From the NCBI RefSeq assembly GCF_030684315.1, contig NC_081370.1, positions 37,962,728 through 38,026,727 of the forward strand: 64,000 nt of DNA, written 5' to 3'. A model generated the notes under the pieces. It was not told the origin of the DNA. It did not search any database and worked only from the letters and a program-made list of their open reading frames with translations. Made by a program: the position numbers and the translations under genes. This document shows positions 22,596 through 58,600 of the stretch, piece by piece (within the stretch, counting starts at the first letter, position 1; every line of letters begins with the position of its first letter). The stretch comes from Stegostoma tigrinum (lineage: Eukaryota).

Positions 22596-23024
22596 TGTCA
22601 AACCAAGCAATGCATGGTAACACTATGGATGTAGTGCTAAAGATGTACATTCCAGAACTAGCCATGCCAGGGTTAAACCGAACCAGTACAACATGGAAAA
22701 TTGCCAAAGTATACCCTGTTTACAAAACTCTGGCAATTATTACCATATAAGTTAACTCTCAATATTTCATGAAGTAAATGGGAAGTGTCATTGGCATTGA
22801 CATTAAGCAGTACTTTCTCAACGACTCAGTTTGGGTTGTGTCAGAGCTAATCAGCTCCTGGCCTTGGTCCAAACAACATGGTGTTGAAGGTAACTGCCCT
22901 TGATATCAAGGAACAAAAAAGAAAAATCTGAAATCAATGGAAGTGGAGTAGGACACACCTTGTCATGGTACCCAAACAAAAAAAGTGGTTGCAGTTGTTG
23001 GAGAACAATTACCTCAGCTCAGAC

Positions 23025-23264
23025 ATAGTAGGAACTGCCAATGCTGGAGTCCGAGATAACAAGGTGTAGAGCTGGATGAACACAGCAGGCCAGGCAGCAG
23101 AGGAACAGGAAAGTTGATGTTTCGAGTCTGGACCCTTCTCCAGAAAAAAAAAGGGTCCAGACCTGAAACGTCATTGCCCATAGTGTTCAGGGGTGTCAGC
23201 TTTCCTGTTCCACTGATGCTGCCTGGCCTGCTGTTACCATCCAGCTCTACACCTTGTTATCTCA
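23025..23264. mobile_element. Fold-back PLE-terminus mini-element (family A) with a 25-nt insertion
   Basis: GAGATAACAAGGTGTAGAGCTGGATG... pairs with ...CATCCAGCTCTACACCTTGTTATCTC. Confidence 0.85.
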
Positions 23265-24209
23265 GCTTCAAGGCTTGCAACATAATCTTGGAAGAGTCCA
23301 CAGCCTAACCTCCTTTATCGTTGACTTTCCCCTCAAACGTGGTATTTGTCAATACCTGTGCAGCGCTCAGCAATTTGTCGTCAGGTACTGAAACAATCAA
23401 GACATCAACATTCAAAACCTGCGTTCATAAGTGGCAAAAACAAAAGTTAGCTGAACCATACAGCTCAGTTGTGAGGGTATGCTTTGCTACTGTAGCAGCT
23501 TTCATTACAGGTGTTAGAGAGGATGGAATTAAAAAGACCCCATGCCATCATTTTGAATTACAGGAGGGTTGACTAACCAGGGTGAACATCACACAAAGCA
23601 GACAGGAAAAAAAAAAAATCAGACCATTATTACAATGTTGTTTGTGGAAACTTATGGTGCGTGGATTTCTTTCTGCATCTCTTAGGTTGCAACACTGGGC
23701 ACACTCCAAAAATACTCAACTGGGTCTGAAGTGCTTTCAGACATTGTGGTCATGTGCTTGAAATACATTTATTTTTTTAAAAATACCATTGTGGAATCTG
23801 CCTCCAACATGCGGGTGATCACCACTGGCCCAAAAATTACTTGGGCCACAGTGATTCCAAGAACAAGTTCCAAGTCAGAAATTCTGCAGCAAATAACTCA
23901 TTCATCTCCCAATTCCCCAAAACTTGTTCACTATTGACAATGTACGAAACAATATGTGAGATACTTCCTACTTTGCTTTGTGGCGTACAACACTTGCGAA
24001 ACCTAGCACCATTCGAGAGAGAATGGAAATTGCTTCATTGGTGCACCACCTTAAATATTGACTCACGTCACCATCAGTGTATACCATCTGGAAGATGCAC
24101 TGCAGCAAGTCATCAAGGATTCTTCAACAATATCTTTAAACCTGTGACCTTTACTGGAAGAGAGACTAAAGTAGATAAATTCCCGTCCAAGTTATGTGGA
24201 ACATACAAA

Positions 24210-24531
24210 GAATTAGAATCCCTACAGTGTGGAAACAGGCCCTTTGGCTTAGCAAGTCAACACCGACGCTTGGGTCATCCCAACCAGACCCTTCCACCTA
24301 TGGCCCACCTAACCTACACACCCCTGAACACTATGGGCAATTTAGCATGGCCAATCCACCTAGCCTGCACATCTTTGGACTATGGGAGGAAACCAGAGCA
24401 TCCGGAGGAAATTGATGCAGACACAGGGAGAACGTGTAAACTCCACACAGACAGTCGACCGAGGGTGGAATTGAACCCAGGTCCCTGGTGCTGTGAGGCA
24501 GCAGTGCTAACCACTGAGCCACCGTGCTACC
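24210..24531 (-). mobile_element. HE1/V-SINE-like tRNA-derived SINE
   Basis: GTGGCTCAGTGGTTAGCACTGCTGCCTCACAG head, GGGTTCAATTCC B-box, V-domain, and CR1-like tail. Confidence 0.88.
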
Positions 24532-25757
24532 CCGTATGTTGTGGGCCCACCAGGGACCAGGTTATTTTGGGCCATAACATGTAAAGAGGCAGGGTTTATT
24601 CATGACTTAAGGTAAAGCATCATCAACAGGAGTGTGATCATAAAGAATTTCATTTAAAGTTTAAGGGGGAAGAACCTTGAGTTTCTCTTCATTAAATACA
24701 ATTGTTAAGGCTATGAACATAAGTAAAGTAGCCTAACAAATAGTTAAAAGGTAAGATGATCGAGAAGCAGATACTTAAGGAGCTCTAACTCGACAATGAA
24801 AAAGATTCCACAAGAAAGTGGCGATGTAGTTTAATTAGCAAGTTAACAATAGTATCAATTGAAATTTTAAAAATTACATTTGAAACCGCACTAAGTAGTG
24901 GCTTCAAAATTTATCAAAGGATGATTTAAAAAAGTGGAGGGTGAAAGCATAACAGGAGAGCCAACTGACATTAACTCATAAAGACTGAAGAAGTTCTTCT
25001 ACAGTTACATAAAGCAGCAATAGCAAAAGTAAAGCTTAGTCTTTTTAGGACAAGACTTGGGAATTAATAATAGGAAGCAAATAAATAGCAGGGATATTGA
25101 ATGAGTAGGCTGTATCTGTCTTCAAAGTAGAGGAAATTGAAGCATCCTAAGGATAGCAGATGTAGGGGCAAAAGGGGAGAAATGTAATGACAATGAAACC
25201 AGAGGAAATTGGACACTTCACAGGATGATGATGAAATGGAAGACACAAGAATTTTTGATAATAAATGGGTAAAAGCTCTCTCTGGTCATTAGATTATAAA
25301 TTAAGATGATAAAGAAAGAGGTCAGGCAATTTTACAACAAGAAATGCAAGACAGGTAGAGGATTTTAGTAATGTGGAACTTCTGTCCAAAAATATTGATG
25401 GGAACTGAGTTCATGATAGCTTTAAATAGAGAAATGGACACATTTGAAAACGACAAATAAAATGGGGGAAAATATTCAGAAGCAAAGATGGAAGAGAAAG
25501 GAGACTAAGTGGATGCTTCTTTCAGAGAATCTACATGAACATAATTCTCTGAACAATCATCATCTTCGTTGTAACATTCTGTGGTTCTAGACAAAGCATG
25601 ATAAGATAACTTATAGTACCAGCAGTGCACCAATGCCATTAGAACAGTACAATGCTTGTGATATGCAGGCACGCAAGCTTGGAAATTCTATGCAGCTGCA
25701 GAGATGCATTGCATTATTGATTAGTATAAATAATTAGTATTGCAGTATTGATCTTAC

Positions 25758-46279: not shown

Positions 46280-48478
46280 TAATAAAATGTGGGGCTGGAT
46301 GAACACAGCAGGCCAAGCAGCATCTCAGGAGCACAAAAGCTGACGTTTCGGGCCTAGACCCTTCATCAGAGAGGGGGATGGGGGGAGGGAACTGGAATAA
46401 ATAGGGAGAGAGGGGGAGGTGGACCGAAGATGGAGAGTAAAGAAGATAGGTGGAGAGGGTGTAGGTGGGGAGGTAGGGAGGGGATAGGTCAGTCCAGGGA
46501 AGACGGACAGGTCAAGGAGGTGGGATGAGGTTAGTAGGTAGCTGGGGGTGCGGCTTGGGGTGGGAGGAAGGGATGGGTGAGAGGAAGAACCGGTTAGGGA
46601 GGCAGAGACAGGTTGGACTGGTTTTGGGATGCAGTGGGTGGGGGGGAAGAGCTGGGCTGGTTGTGTGGTGCAGTGGGGGGAGGGGATGAACTGGGCTGGT
46701 TTAGGGATGCAGTGGGGGAAGGGGAGATTTTGAAACTGGTGAAGTCCACATTGATACCATATGGCTGCAGGGTTCCCAGGCGGAATATGAGTTGCTGTTC
46801 CTGCAACCTTCGGGTGGCATCATTGTGGCAGTGCAGGAGGCCCATGATGGACATGTCATCAAGAGAATGGGAGGGGGAGTGGAAATGGTTTGCGACTGGG
46901 AGGTGCAGTTGTTGGTTACGAACTGAGCGGAGGTGTTCTGCAAAGCGGTCCCCAAGCCTCCGCTTGGTTTCCCCAATGTAGAGGAAGCCGCACCGGGTAC
47001 AGTGGATGCAGTATACCACATTGGCAGATGTGCAGGTGAACCTCTGCTTAATGTGGAATGTCATCTTGGGGCCTGGGATGGGGGTGAGGGAGGAGGTGTG
47101 GGGACAAGTGTAGCATTTCCTGCGGTTGCAGGGGAAGGTGCCGGGTATGGTGGGGTTGGAGGGCAGTGTGGAGCGAACAAGGGAGTCACGGAGAGAGTGG
47201 TCTCTCCGGAAAGCAGACAGGGGAGGGGATGGAAAAATGTCTTGGGTGGTGGGGTCGGATTGTAAATGGCGGAAGTGTCGGAGGATAATGCGTTGTATCC
47301 GGAGGTTGGTAGGGTGGTGTGTGAGAACGAGGGGGATCCTCTTGGGGCGGTTGTGGCGGGGGCGGGGTGTGAGGGATGTGTCGCGGGAGACGCGGTCAAG
47401 GGCGTTCTCAATCACCGTGGGGGGAAAGTTGCGGTCCTTAAAGAACTTGGACATCTGGGATGTGCGGGAGTGGAATGTCTTATCGTGGGAGCAGATGCGG
47501 CGGAGGCGGAGGAATTGGGAATAGGGGATGGAATTTTTGCAGGAGGGTGGGTGGGAGGAGGTGTATTCTAGGTAGCTGTGGGAGTCGGTGGGCTTGAAAT
47601 GGACATCAGTTACAAGCTGGTTGCCTGAGATGGAGACTGAGAGGTCCAGGAAGGTGAGGGATGTGCTGGAGATGGCCCAGGTGAACTGAAGGTTGGGGTG
47701 GAAGGTGTTGGTGAAGTGGATGAACTGTTCGAGCTCCTCTGGGGAGCAAGAGGCGGCGCCGATACAGTCATCAATGTACCGGAGGAAGAGGTGGGGTTTG
47801 GGGCCTGTGTAGGTGCGGAAGATGGACTGTTCCACGTAACCTACAAAGAGGCAGGCATAGCTGGGGCCCATGCGGGTGCCCATGGCCACCCCCTTAGTCT
47901 GTAGGAAGTGGGAGGAGTCAAAAGAGAAGTTGTTGAGTGTGAGGACGAGTTCCGCTAGGCGGATGAGAGTGTCGGTGGAGGGGGCCTGGTCGGGCCTGCG
48001 GGACAGGAAGAAGCGGAGGGCCTTGAGGCCATCTCCATGCGGAATGCAGGTGTACAGGGACTGGACGTCCATGGTGAATATGAGGTGTTGGGGGCCAGGG
48101 AATTGGAAGTCCTGGAGGAGGTGGAGGGCGTGGGTGGTGTCACGGACATAGGTGGCGAGTTCCTGGACCAAAGGGGAGAAAATGGAGTCCAGATAGGTGG
48201 AGATGAGTTCGGTGGGGCAGGAGCAGGCTGAGACGATGGGTCGACCGGGGCAGGCAGGTTTGTGGATTTTGGGAAGGAGATAGAAACGGGCCGTGCGGGG
48301 TTGGGGAACAATGAGGTTGGAGGCTGTGGGTGGGAGGTCCCCTGAGGTGATGAGGTCATGAATGGTGTTGGAGATGATGGTTTGGTGCTCGGGTGTGGGG
48401 TCATGATCGAGGAGGCGGTAGGAGGTGGTGTCGGAAAGTTGGCGTCTGGCCTCGGCGATGTAGAGGTCAGTACGCCAT
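46280..48478 (-). mobile_element. Penelope-like retroelement (Neptune-like), 5'-truncated, young
   Basis: Open RT (DVQSLY, KGVAMG, YIDD), Cys-rich linker (CNRRKCYTC) and GIY-YIG (VVYCIHC...YIGET), with a hammerhead-bearing 3' end. 14-bp TSD ACAAAGAACAATGA at 46266-79 and 48479-92. Confidence 0.95.
46338..46373 (-). ncRNA. Minimal hammerhead ribozyme motif, sense to the TBC pre-mRNA
   Basis: Reverse complement of CTGATGAAGGGTCTAGGCCCGAAACGTC at 46342-46369. Confidence 0.75.
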
Positions 48479-48480
48479 AC
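46594..48480 (-). CDS. PLE reverse transcriptase plus GIY-YIG endonuclease (N-terminally truncated; no stops or frameshifts)
   Basis: PLE-homologous part of the 733-aa ORF, starting at about VWRTDLYIAEARRQL. The upstream ~105 codons are flanking DNA beyond the TSD. Confidence 0.85.
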   Translation of the reverse strand, partial: VWRTDLYIAEARRQLSDTTSYRLLDHDPTPEHQTIISNTIHDLITSGDLPPTASNLIVPQPRTARFYLLPKIHKPACPGRPIVSACSCPTELISTYLDSIFSPLVQELATYVRDTTHALHLLQDFQFPGPQHLIFTMDVQSLYTCIPHGDGLKALRFFLSRRPDQAPSTDTLIRLAELVLTLNNFSFDSSHFLQTKGVAMGTRMGPSYACLFVGYVEQSIFRTYTGPKPHLFLRYIDDCIGAASCSPEELEQFIHFTNTFHPNLQFTWAISSTSLTFLDLSVSISGNQLVTDVHFKPTDSHSYLEYTSSHPPSCKNSIPYSQFLRLRRICSHDKTFHSRTSQMSKFFKDRNFPPTVIENALDRVSRDTSLTPRPRHNRPKRIPLVLTHHPTNLRIQRIILRHFRHLQSDPTTQDIFPSPPLSAFRRDHSLRDSLVRSTLPSNPTIPGTFPCNRRKCYTCPHTSSLTPIPGPKMTFHIKQRFTCTSANVVYCIHCTRCGFLYIGETKRRLGDRFAEHLRSVRNQQLHLPVANHFHSPSHSLDDMSIMGLLHCHNDATRRLQEQQLIFRLGTLQPYGINVDFTSFKISPSPTASLNQPSSSPPPTAPHNQPSSSPPPTASQNQSNLSLPP

Positions 48481-49745
48481 AAAGAACAATGACATACGTG
48501 AACAGATAACCAGATAGGATTTTCTGGCTCTTCTCCAAAGTGGCAACATGGAATCCACCCGACTGTGTGAGCAAGGCCTTAGTATCATCCACACAGCAGC
48601 CTCTCTCATATTGAATTTTAGCATTGAGGCTGGGAATATCAACCTGGATAATGCACTTGGTTTTTTGCAGTAGGAGCTTTTGGGTGTTTTGAAATTACTA
48701 CTATTAAACCATGATTGACATAGCAGGTGAAAATGGCCCCTGGTGTAGTGTAGAAACAAATGAATGATTGCCAACCCTTTTAACATTCTCACCAAATTTT
48801 CATTTTGAATTCAAAGTGAAAAATCTGGAAGATTGTAAAACAGAAAGCCAATGTGTTTTGTGTTGAAGAGAGAGAGAGAAAAATTATACCATTACGTTTA
48901 GATTTTTCACGAATTGTTCAAGAACGTACATCATTTTTGATTTTAATTCAAAGATTTTGCCAGCTACACTCTCGTTATAAAATCCCAGAGAGATTTAAAG
49001 TAGTAATGTCGACTAAACCTAATACCCTTAATTTTTGCACAGCAGATTGTAACGAGATTCTCAGAAATTTGCGAGAACTTGTCAATGGAAAGTGCTGTTC
49101 TGTCAATTACTGGGCCACATTTCGGGACACCAGGAAGAAAAGAACACAATTTAGCATCGCAAACCGGTCCGGCCATTCTGTGAGATCAAGGGCGATCTTT
49201 AACTTCACCCTTTCCTCATGTGTACTCCTTAAAAAGAAACTGAACAAAAAAAATCTATCAGTTTCAGTTTTAAAATTAAGACCTCTTTTGCTCCGTACTG
49301 AAGAGAATATCTGCTAGTCTTCGACTCTGGAAGCAGGAGCAGTTTCCGCTTCCATTTTCCAATGAAAGTAAAATTATTGGTGAGCAAATTTAGTGACCTG
49401 ATTTCAGAGCAAGGTTATATCGCGCAATAACTGCCAGCCAGATTGCAACCGCTCACACTATTTGCATTCTTTCCCTATAACGAAAACACTTCTACCACAA
49501 AGGGAAGTCACGAATGTAAAACACATTCAACAATTGCACCATTCGACAAATTACGACCGTGCCTTTTCGCGGTTGAGATTAGCAAACCGCACGGGTTTCT
49601 CGCTGGAACCCTGAATGAAACTGTCGAATACACTGCACAATAGTGACAGTTGCGGAACTGAGTAGCTGGTTGTGGACCAGCGACTCGGTCCAGTCCTCAA
49701 ACAACAATAAAGCCTACAGGGCATTCAGCTGCCAACATGATTCCC

Positions 49746-55623: not shown

Positions 55624-58600
55624 TGTTGCGAAGTTGAATAGAGTACTTATGGATTAGGAGGCAGGAGGTCAGAATTTGGTGTTTGTAAAATGCTAGGGGG
55701 GAAAGCAGTGTGTGGTCTCTTTAAAAGAATGATGTGCTTTTCCCATGTTTAGAAATTTAAGAAGGACGTCTGTGAGCAGCTTGAAAGTTTGAAAGTGCAC
55801 AGAGAGTACCCAAATTCAAATATTTGTATCACCATGTGGCTCGGTGGCTCAGTGGTTAGGACTGCTGCCTCACAGTGCCAGGGACCCAGGTTCAGTTCCA
55901 GCCTTTCAATTCCTATGTGGAGTTTGCACATTCTCCCCATGTCTGCGTGGGTTTCTTCCGGGTGCTCTGGTTTCCTCCTACAGTCTAAAATGTGCAGGTT
56001 ACGTGGATTGGCCACGCTAAAATTGCCTGTAGTGTTCAGGGATGTGTACCTTAGGTGGGTTAAAGGCAGAGGGGTCCGGGTGGAATGCTGCAAGGATCGG
56101 TATAGACTTGTTGGGCCAAAGGACCTGTTTCCACACTGTAGGAATTCTATGAGAAGGCTATACAGTTAGCAGGCCAAGCAGCAATTCTGTTTTGTTACCA
56201 AGACAAGAAGTTTTGAATTTGGCCAAGCAATTTGATCCAGGCATTTGGATACCAAAAATCAGTTAAATTAAACCCGATGGTTTTAACAATATAGGACTAA
56301 TCTTATTGCAAGAAACTGATGTGTCATCAAAAGTATAAAAGAAGATGGCAATTGGACAAAGGCAGAAAAGCGAACTGCCATCTGTCAGAGTTAACAACTC
56401 TCAGCTCTCCAGACAGAATCGCAGGCTGTCACAATCTTTTCTAAGGTTTAGACATAGCACCACATAAATCAATGATACCTACAGCACAACTAACTAATGT
56501 TCTTGCCAGAAAAATCGACAGAACATTCTCGAAGACACAAAACCTGGCTGTAATTTCAAGAGGCTAAATTCTAATTTTTATTTTTGTTTTATAAAAGTGG
56601 GATTTCTATTTATTGGAACAGCACACCATTAGAATCTTGTTTTATTTGGGAATGGTTAGTTAGAAGGGGGTTATTCAGTTTGTTAATAGTGTAGTTAATT
56701 TGTTCAATGTTAGAGTTAGATGAATAACTTGTTACTTGTTGATTATAAAGTGAGTGTCAATGGTTTATTTTATTTAACCACCAGACATTGCTGAAAGGCA
56801 GATTACACCACTTTTCACACTCCTTTTAAACAGATAAGAGGGCGAGGTGCTCCTCTTTGGGTGTTTCAGTTTTAATTCTCAGAGCAGCGTCAACCTCTGC
56901 TTTATGACAGATTGGGGCTCATGTCTGGGATCTGAATGGATTTGAACATATCTGAACAGATTGAACAAATGTGAATGTATTTGGAATGAATCTGAACAGA
57001 TGTGGAAAAACTGAAAGATTTCAGAAGATTTAAACAGACTTGGGAATTAGTATCTTAGACCTTTAAATAAAACTTAAGTGAGATGTGGGAACTCAGTTTA
57101 ATTTAGGTTGCTTGTTATTGGTTGAAACAAACGTGGGGAAATGGCTCTTAACATTGCTTAAGTGGTTTTGGGGGTCGAAGATGCCTCCTAAATTTGCCAA
57201 GAAGGTTTTGAAATACAGAAAACAGGGACACTTCTAGAATTAGCAGAAAGGCTAGAATTGGGTTTAACTAGGGATAAGAAGAAAGCAGAAATTGTAATGG
57301 AGTTAGCCAAGCATTTAGGTATATCAGAGAAACAGTCAAGTGCAGTGGGGTTAGAAAAAATTAAACTGCAAATTAGAGAATTGGAGTTAGAAGATAAAGA
57401 AAGGGAAAGAAAATTCCTAGCTGAGAAAGAAGAAAAGAAAAGAAGGTCCGAGTTTGAGAAGGTGAAGTTGGAACTTAGGAGAAAAATAAACTTCAAATGA
57501 CAGAAGTAAAAGTATAAGACAGAAGTGATGATGAACAAGCTCATCATAACTAACAGTCCGGTGGGGATACATACAAATATGGCAAAACATTACCAAAATC
57601 TGATGAAATAGATGAAGAAGCCTTTTTCATTTCCTTCGAGAAATCAGCTAAACAGATGCACTAGAGGCAATGTGGATAATGTTCATTCAGAACAAGTTGG
57701 GAGGCAGGGCTAGTGAGGTGTTTGCAGCCCTGTCAGAGGAGGTGTAAAGAGAATATGAAGGAATAAAACAGGCTGTTTTACTACGAATTGGTAACAGAAG
57801 CATATAGATAACCATTCAGAAATGTAGGAAAGGAATCAGATCAGACATATATCAAGTTTGGATGAATTAAACAGAGCAACTTCGACAGATGGATGAGAGC
57901 ATTAAAGATAGAAATGACTTATGAGGATCTTAGAGATGTTATTCTGTTTGAGGAGTTTAAAAACCCACTTCCAGAAGTGAGAAGAACTCATGTTGAAGAA
58001 AGGAAAATTGAAACAGTGAGAAGTGCTGTAGAGACGGTGGATGAAAACGCCATCAGTACTTAAATAGAAATCTAGCTTCCGACAGCAATTTTATTCCATG
58101 AGGGATACAAATTGGGAAAGAGGGAGATCCTTCAATGAAAAACAAAAAGTAGACCGCAGTGGGTACAGTTGAATGTGTGAAATGTGTGAAGATAGAAACC
58201 CAAGAGGGTGGGAAAGAGGTGAAAGGCCTCAGGTGTTTCCACTGTAATAAAGTGCTGGTGGTTTAAGGAAGGCACTGGGAAAAGTTGTTTTCACTGCACT
58301 AAGGTGGGACCCACAAAGTCACAGTGCTGGTGGTTTAAGAAAGGCACTGGGAAAAAGACATGGCAAAAGAGGCTACGCCAGCGGGATTAGCTGAGGTAAT
58401 GAAGGAAATCCCAAAGAATTTGAGGAGTTGCAGCAGACTACACAGCCAAGTTACAGACTGGATAGTAAGATGGCACCCTATCTTTTCAAAGACTTCAGCT
58501 GCGTGGGTAAGGATTACTGAAATAGAACAAGGGGATTAGATAAAGAAGTTTACATATTAAGAGATATGGGGGCTGGTCAGCCTATAATAGTAAGAGTTGA

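Follow-up and report, generated by a model that had tools for sequence, protein, structure and literature searches.

The locus and its element family

The window, the whole 64,000-nucleotide stretch of Stegostoma tigrinum DNA analyzed here, contains at 23020–23263 a single Penelope-like insertion made up of two arms arranged head to head and flanked on both sides by a 7-bp target-site duplication (TSD). The left TSD copy (CTCAGCT, 7 bp) lies at 23013–23019 on the forward strand, and the right copy (23261–23267, forward) overlaps the end of a tail. The left arm (23020–23146, reverse strand) comprises a Penelope-like terminus with a long tail and a decayed hammerhead, in which the core is mutated to CTGGAGA (23137–23143) and GTC has decayed to ATC; this arm lacks the insert and differs at 7 of 85 positions from the consensus of 22 subfamily copies. 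The arms are joined by a run of nine A residues (23144–23152, forward), which stands where the right arm should have its CUGANGA core. The right arm itself (23151–23263, forward) extends from stem II to a short tail and holds the insert, without which it differs from the consensus at 9 of 88 positions. With CUGANGA missing from the right arm and mutated in the left, an intact hammerhead core is present in neither. Three adjacent substitutions at 23229–23232 of the right arm convert GTT to TAC, perhaps in one template-switch event.

The inverted truncated arm, the tail, and the TSD that characterize Penelope-like elements are all present at this locus. Pseudo-LTR insertions with the same two inverted arms and the same long and short tails appear in the available portions of three earlier studies (Cervera and de la Peña 2014, PMC4209133; Frangieh 2024, PMC11167929; Craig 2021, PMC8557442). 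A long tail on the left and a short one on the right are expected from two reverse transcriptase (RT) start sites and priming on both strands, which has been shown in vitro, as far as the available text of PMC11167929 goes. The family is assigned to the EN+ Penelope-like elements because another copy of the terminus adjoins an open frame that matches RT and GIY-YIG. This frame of 738 codons (46597–48810, reverse strand) runs uninterrupted, and the copy carrying it is possibly young. Its Pfam matches, RVT_1 (E=3.5e-5) followed by a C-terminal GIY-YIG (E=0.007), both fall below the curated cut-off, and it ends 248 nt upstream of a terminus copy different from the focal one. RT with a C-terminal GIY-YIG is likewise described in the accessible parts of PMC4209133, PMC11167929, and PMC8557442.

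The family consensus contains CUGANGA, GAAA, NUH, an extra base at 9/10.1, and G10.1–C11.1, the features of a minimal type I hammerhead. Its helix II folds as 4 bp with a tetraloop, and the palindromic ACGU at 15.2–16.2 pairs with itself. Minimal type I organization, the extra base, and the palindrome are shared with the published elements, to judge from the same portions of PMC4209133, PMC11167929, and PMC8557442. Helix I forms 2 bp in register, short of the 4–5 bp of the usual criterion; a D. virilis hammerhead with a 2-bp helix I is described in the available part of PMC4209133. An Rfam scan found no hammerhead and returned three miRNA hits far below gathering scores.

The focal insert and its junctions

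From 23165, the right arm reads GAAAC-GTC-ATTGCCCATAGTGTTCAGGGGTGT-C-AGCTTT. The preliminary description correctly located an insert within 23166–23200 and set the start of GAAAC one base too far to the right. The GUC triplet occupies 23170–23172 (forward), and from the sequence and the customary numbering of hammerhead positions (PMC4209133) the cut is predicted 3ʹ of 23172. Next comes a 24-nt SINE-derived insert (23173–23196, forward), the first A and last GT of which are common to the element and constitute microhomology. The duplicated GTC lies at 23195–23197 (forward); C23197 is derived from the element rather than the SINE, and AGCTTT resumes at 23198. The net gain is 25 nt with GTCA duplicated, as initially reported. 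The left junction can be placed at either of two adjacent positions, since the break may lie after C or after A; a start of the foreign bases immediately after GUC, as originally proposed, is thus one possible reading and not the unique one. The right junction retains C, or GTC, from the 5ʹ side of the predicted cut. The insert is 50% GC, with 1–2 nt of microhomology at each end.

The possibility of an assembly artefact, raised with the original observation, is countered by two samples of the species whose contigs span the insert. A contig from run X11 covers 23109–23223 with 0 differences and at single-copy depth, and run X12, from another sample with the same organism label, covers the insert at a depth of 21.6; the two runs belong to a single study, and the assembly may have been built from one of them. 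The insert junction has a single match in the 3.2-Gb genome with up to 2 mismatches allowed, and an amplified chimeric subfamily was rejected on account of this uniqueness. In three runs from a related organism (X1, X2, and X6), the left-arm tail and the 5ʹ end of the SINE are covered and 23174–23185 is not. The unique right flank (23303–23503) likewise has almost no coverage in X1 and X6, whose unique flanks differ from the window by approximately 5–8%. Hairpin contigs that end at 23173 may be paralogues, and the gap in coverage is accordingly taken as evidence neither for nor against the insert in the related organism.

A neighboring SINE as the likely template

A SINE of tRNA type, with A and B boxes and called HE1-like in the preliminary description, occupies 24214–24533 on the reverse strand and differs at 32 of 309 positions from the consensus of carriers of the 24-mer. 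Positions 23173–23196 are the exact reverse complement of 24318–24341 (reverse strand), the likely template, which lies inverted and 1,121 nt from the insert; none of 100 shuffles gave a match. The local alignment scores 48, whereas shuffled sequences reach at most 24. As first noted, the other SINE copy, at 56022, differs from the 24-mer, in this case by 3 mismatches. The insert corresponds to positions 200–223 of a 346-nt SINE query and is therefore internal, with the SINE 3ʹ tail not included.

Whether the 24-mer is simply the SINE consensus receives a divided answer: it is a common variant, with 3,573 exact copies in the genome, and yet it occurs in 0 of 31 unselected SINE copies and in 6 of 32 copies selected by anchors. 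An exact copy would fall by chance within 1,168 nt on either side with P=0.0026, a value to be read with the caveat that picking from a window favors such cases, the insert being prominent in the genome-wide listing as well. A copy so near makes the neighboring SINE the likely template. This probability, the absence of the 24-mer from the 31 unselected copies, the inverted orientation, and the end microhomology bear out the earlier proposal of DNA-level templating, and the template was very probably local DNA. A nascent transcript of the locus may have served instead of DNA. At position 24321, a G variant of this SINE accounts for approximately 50–65% of depth in Stegostoma tigrinum and approximately 10% in the related organism; SINEs with this G form a lineage-expanded subfamily.

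The preliminary description also considered an RNA-level origin. On such a scheme, a piece of SINE RNA would have been joined to both cleavage products by ligation, or RT would have switched to a SINE RNA from another locus. Read in the direction of the ribozyme, the insert has SINE sense, its left junction can be read as exactly after GUC, and the 24-mer is a subfamily-type sequence found 3,573 times. However, an exact copy within 1.2 kb would then be a 0.26% coincidence, and the added C, which is absent from the cleaved 3ʹ product, would go unexplained. Moreover, the fragment is SINE-internal, whereas SINE retroposition by target-primed reverse transcription (TPRT) is expected to bring in the 3ʹ tail. 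No further SINE-internal insert occurs among the listed events, which do include, elsewhere, a SINE tail with a TSD. That copy (L274, G000:C13:37256680–37256758) has a 21-nt SINE 3ʹ tail and a 5-bp duplication inside the terminus and looks like an ordinary target-primed insertion. An RNA-level origin is accordingly very improbable.

A scar hot spot at the predicted cut

An exact-anchor search of the genome recovered 151,101 normal termini together with anchored length variants: 85 at +5 to +11 nt, 74 at +12 to +23, and 73 at +24 to +32. Variants at +12 to +42 nt numbered 261 in all, and 100 of them were listed. Inserts of 1–4 nt, most of the 114 copies at +33 to +42, and copies failing the exact anchors lie outside this search. 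All 159 copies at +5 to +23 were retrieved; 157 of them are distinct, and 94 are near-clean duplications. Copies in which a filler of 4 nt or more is followed by resumption within the interval number 57, a count that leaves out a misaligned duplication (L062) and two segmental copies of L271. In 24 of the 57, the element picks up again precisely at the A that follows GUC (+1); with a two-arm locus merged, the figure is 23 of 56 (p=6e-12, two positions allowed).

The fillers at this hot spot are 60% A, 23 of the 24 are mutually distinct, and both subfamilies contribute. A-rich fillers are mostly 4–12 nt long and sit exactly between GTC and AGCTT (for example, L146, L161, L126, and L241; one run consists of 13 A's). 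By eye, the pattern recurs in approximately 26 of the first 100 of 194 listed matches, a set that overlaps the first. In the filler set, none resumes at the ACGT palindrome and one breaks on the other AGCT strand, so the signal is strand-asymmetric. A control interval yielded 0 A-rich fillers (41 rows by eye, the first 30 by script).

Head-to-head pairs point to the same position. Among 56 events (first 100 of 3,227 listed, by eye), the pair centers fall on AGCT in 32, ACGT in 2, GGCC in 8, and asymmetric sites in 14. The ACGT palindrome lies 5 nt from the AGCT at the predicted cut. The AGCT-centered events are perfect palindromes, for example L342–L344. Additionally, 18 of 24 hot-spot filler copies extend far upstream, compared with 19 of 95 normal copies (p=8e-7), as expected if RT had switched to the 3ʹ end of a cleaved RNA one unit long.

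Several further features of the terminus were observed. Tandem restarts among the matches listed occur overwhelmingly at about −31, just 5ʹ of the core, and a transcript start or an intron end may lie there; 76 of 95 normal terminus copies have no long upstream sequence. A terminus variant recurs at approximately 5.4-kb spacing in a tandem array (L330–L339, G000:C13:8.94–9.01 Mb). In one inverted pair (L166, G000:C15:54443896 and 54444606), both arms bear an identical 9-nt replacement at the cut site; being common to both arms, this scar was already in the template.

The A-rich scars and AGCT-centered pairs likely record in vivo cleavage by the hammerhead. The hot spot probably arises from RT run-off at the cleaved end, after which the cDNA either folds back on A's of its own or jumps across an oligo(A) tail. 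The self-complementary AGCT adjoining a T run could contribute to the hot spot without cleavage. Plain 5ʹ truncations show no peak at the cut (first 100 of 4,208 listed, by eye): that listing holds 24 AGCT-centered palindromes, and its other breaks include 6 at +1, 11 at +7, and 8 at +6. The filter behind this listing lets every palindrome through and about 1 in 5 random junctions, and allowing for this no truncation peak is left. Among 3ʹ breaks, approximately 9 of 32 foreign breaks fall at 0 to +2, a mild excess (first 100 of 784 listed, by eye). The lack of a truncation peak and the mild 3ʹ-break excess speak against cleavage as the dominant cause.

A DNA-level origin for both the insert and the hot spot was also weighed, in which a Harbinger-type transposon once occupied the CAG spanning the cut and its excision break was patched from the SINE. 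The CAG duplication would account for the retained C. However, inspection by eye, with patterns that miss some termini, showed no recurring terminal sequence after GTC or after GTCAG, either among the first 100 of 194 or among the first 100 of 784 listed matches. Resumption with a CAG duplication was found at 0 of 28 correctly centered break loci scanned over 1.5–4.9 kb (4 of 32, centered on the wrong copy, were dropped). PIF/Harbinger excision is generally precise, according to the available part of PMC4561436, and hot-spot fillers resume at +1 rather than −1. This is the least credible of the origins considered, and a highly improbable one.

What is new here is that scars at a Penelope hammerhead concentrate on a single nucleotide; the insert itself is of a known templated-junction type. 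No description of fillers at a Penelope hammerhead cut was found in a literature search of main texts that covered few subscription journals, and related junctions may be present in the supplements of PMC4209133 and PMC11167929. The available portions of PMC4209133, PMC11167929, and PMC8557442 contain no evidence of in vivo cleavage, and one of the three looked for RNA ends at the hammerhead site and found none; in the present genome, scars pile up at that nucleotide.

Long inserts and locally templated fillers

The predicted enrichment of inserts at GUC holds for the short A-rich fillers and does not extend to long foreign inserts. A targeted search returned 20 rows, all self-duplications and none a long foreign insert at GUC (the focal copy fails the search anchor), and the same search at a control position gave 58 rows of self-duplications alone. 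Foreign DNA rejoining at AGC was seen in 0 of the first 100 of 443 listed matches.

Local templates were sought for 16 fillers and 4 more. Among these 20, only the focal copy and L208 have a near-perfect local template. The insert of L208 (G000:C2:111958184–111958253) agrees at 22 of 23 nt with an inverted sequence that is unique and lies 1,336 nt downstream; L208 is also in an inverted pair, of the same subfamily as the focal one, its template lies on the same side, and its left junction is 1–2 nt from the cut. The L264 filler matches a local repeat ambiguously, and the scores of L271, L276, and L248 equal or slightly exceed the shuffle maximum. L175 and L154 have GTC duplicated around a short filler. 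In L357 (G000:C2:36833606), a 27-nt foreign filler directly follows GTC(A) before a restart, and no template for it was found within 4.9 kb.

Origin of the focal insert

The reading preferred here, held at somewhat under an even chance, is that the insert is a DNA-templated fold-back copy of the SINE made during Penelope-like integration, when the cDNA had stalled at or just past the predicted cut. This estimate for the whole is lower than that for the local template because links to integration and to cleavage are added to it. The template lies on the side that primes this arm, so it is the cDNA (bottom) strand that gains the insert when it loops back, and the geometry of both the focal copy and L208 fits a bottom strand looping onto its own flank. 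RT would copy from the tail to the cut, enter 1–3 nt into GUC, and release; the freed 3ʹ end (AC) would anneal to GT in the resected flank beside it; 22 nt would be copied, by RT itself or by a repair polymerase of the host, for instance Pol theta; and the end would rejoin at GUC by 1-nt pairing, duplicating GTC. Priming on both strands, noted above, would supply the arms. For L1, self-annealing of cDNA on a resected flank is described in the available portion of PMC11702581.

A serious contender, rated below even, is a later break or stalled fork in the 240-bp palindrome, repaired from the SINE by a microhomology-mediated pathway (TMEJ or MMBIR type), with GUC as the site by chance. The end microhomology and small duplication require no RNA step, and small duplications are frequent in templated fillers at other positions (L277, L275, and L281). 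The insert is unlike the A-rich filler class and retains 24/24 identity although the arms are 8–10% off consensus. However, the chance of landing at GUC is about 2 in 26, the position is a strong hot spot, and the sole other locally templated case, L208, has the same side and site. Pol theta end joining (Carvajal-Garcia 2020) and MMBIR-type events yield the same kind of short inverted flank copy with 1–2 nt of microhomology. As the accessible part of PMC7165422 has it, Pol theta usually copies from within 30 bp, seldom more than 10 nt per round and with AT-rich products, and distal templates make up <0.1% of repair. The original suggestion of a Pol-theta-like insertion therefore agrees with the flank copy and its microhomology and disagrees with templates at most approximately 30–50 bp away and AT-rich inserts, the focal template being 1,121 nt distant and copied as one 24-nt tract of 50% GC.

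Alternatively, the fold-back may have taken place at integration after RT left an uncleaved RNA at a random point, with GUC an accident. The right junction passes the cut by 1–3 nt, truncations occur at many positions, and the dominant in vitro substrate is uncleaved RNA (PMC11167929, in the portion available). Against this stand the same positional chance of about 2 in 26 and L208, which is likewise at the site; this variant is unlikely.

The focal insert differs from the hot-spot class in several respects. It rejoins at −1 to −3 rather than +1, it is 50% GC against 21%, and it measures 21–24 nt against mostly 4–12. Furthermore, its arm stops 20 nt upstream, unlike most hot-spot copies. Perfect identity of insert and SINE has a chance of 11–23% if both are as old as the arms and of 33–48% for the insert alone, which slightly favors a younger event. 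The left junction, the side, L208, and L175 and L154 are thus set against the retained C, GC content, length, bounding microhomology, short arm, identity, and the lack of enrichment of long foreign inserts at GUC, and this division leaves integration-time fold-back a little short of even and later repair also below it. The earlier view of the insert as a fossil of cleavage finds support genome-wide in the A-rich fillers and AGCT pairs and none in the long foreign inserts; for the focal insert, it is roughly balanced.

A combined account of the genome-wide scars and the two captures is tentative and stands below an even chance. Hammerhead cutting in the germ line would be recorded to the nucleotide. 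RT running off the cut 5ʹ end would jump to the GUC end of the same RNA, often over an oligo(A)-like tail, or the cDNA would instead pair with a second cDNA through AGCT. Occasionally, a free cDNA end would capture DNA approximately 1.1–1.3 kb along its own flank. If the focal insert and L208 arose in this way, ribozyme cleavage would drive the capture of local DNA into a retroelement.

Comparison systems and implications

R2, which has an HDV-like ribozyme, likewise involves RT run-off from ribozyme-cut RNA, with nontemplated bases and microhomology marking the junction, so that genomic R2 junctions reveal the ribozyme cut (Eickbush 2013, PMC3774820, available portion). The R2 scar lies at the junction of element and target (PMC3774820), whereas the Penelope scar is internal, between two cleavage products, and A-rich. 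Fold-back junctions of L1 TPRT, in the available part of PMC11702581, share a cDNA-extended end that self-anneals on a kilobase-scale resected flank; they involve another element class, no ribozyme, and somatic cell lines.

The single insert is a modest curiosity, valuable because it pointed the way to the hot spot. It may show how integration intermediates pick up neighboring DNA. Because the scars can be counted in assemblies, in vivo cleavage, tailing, and end-to-end jumping become testable in any Penelope-rich genome.
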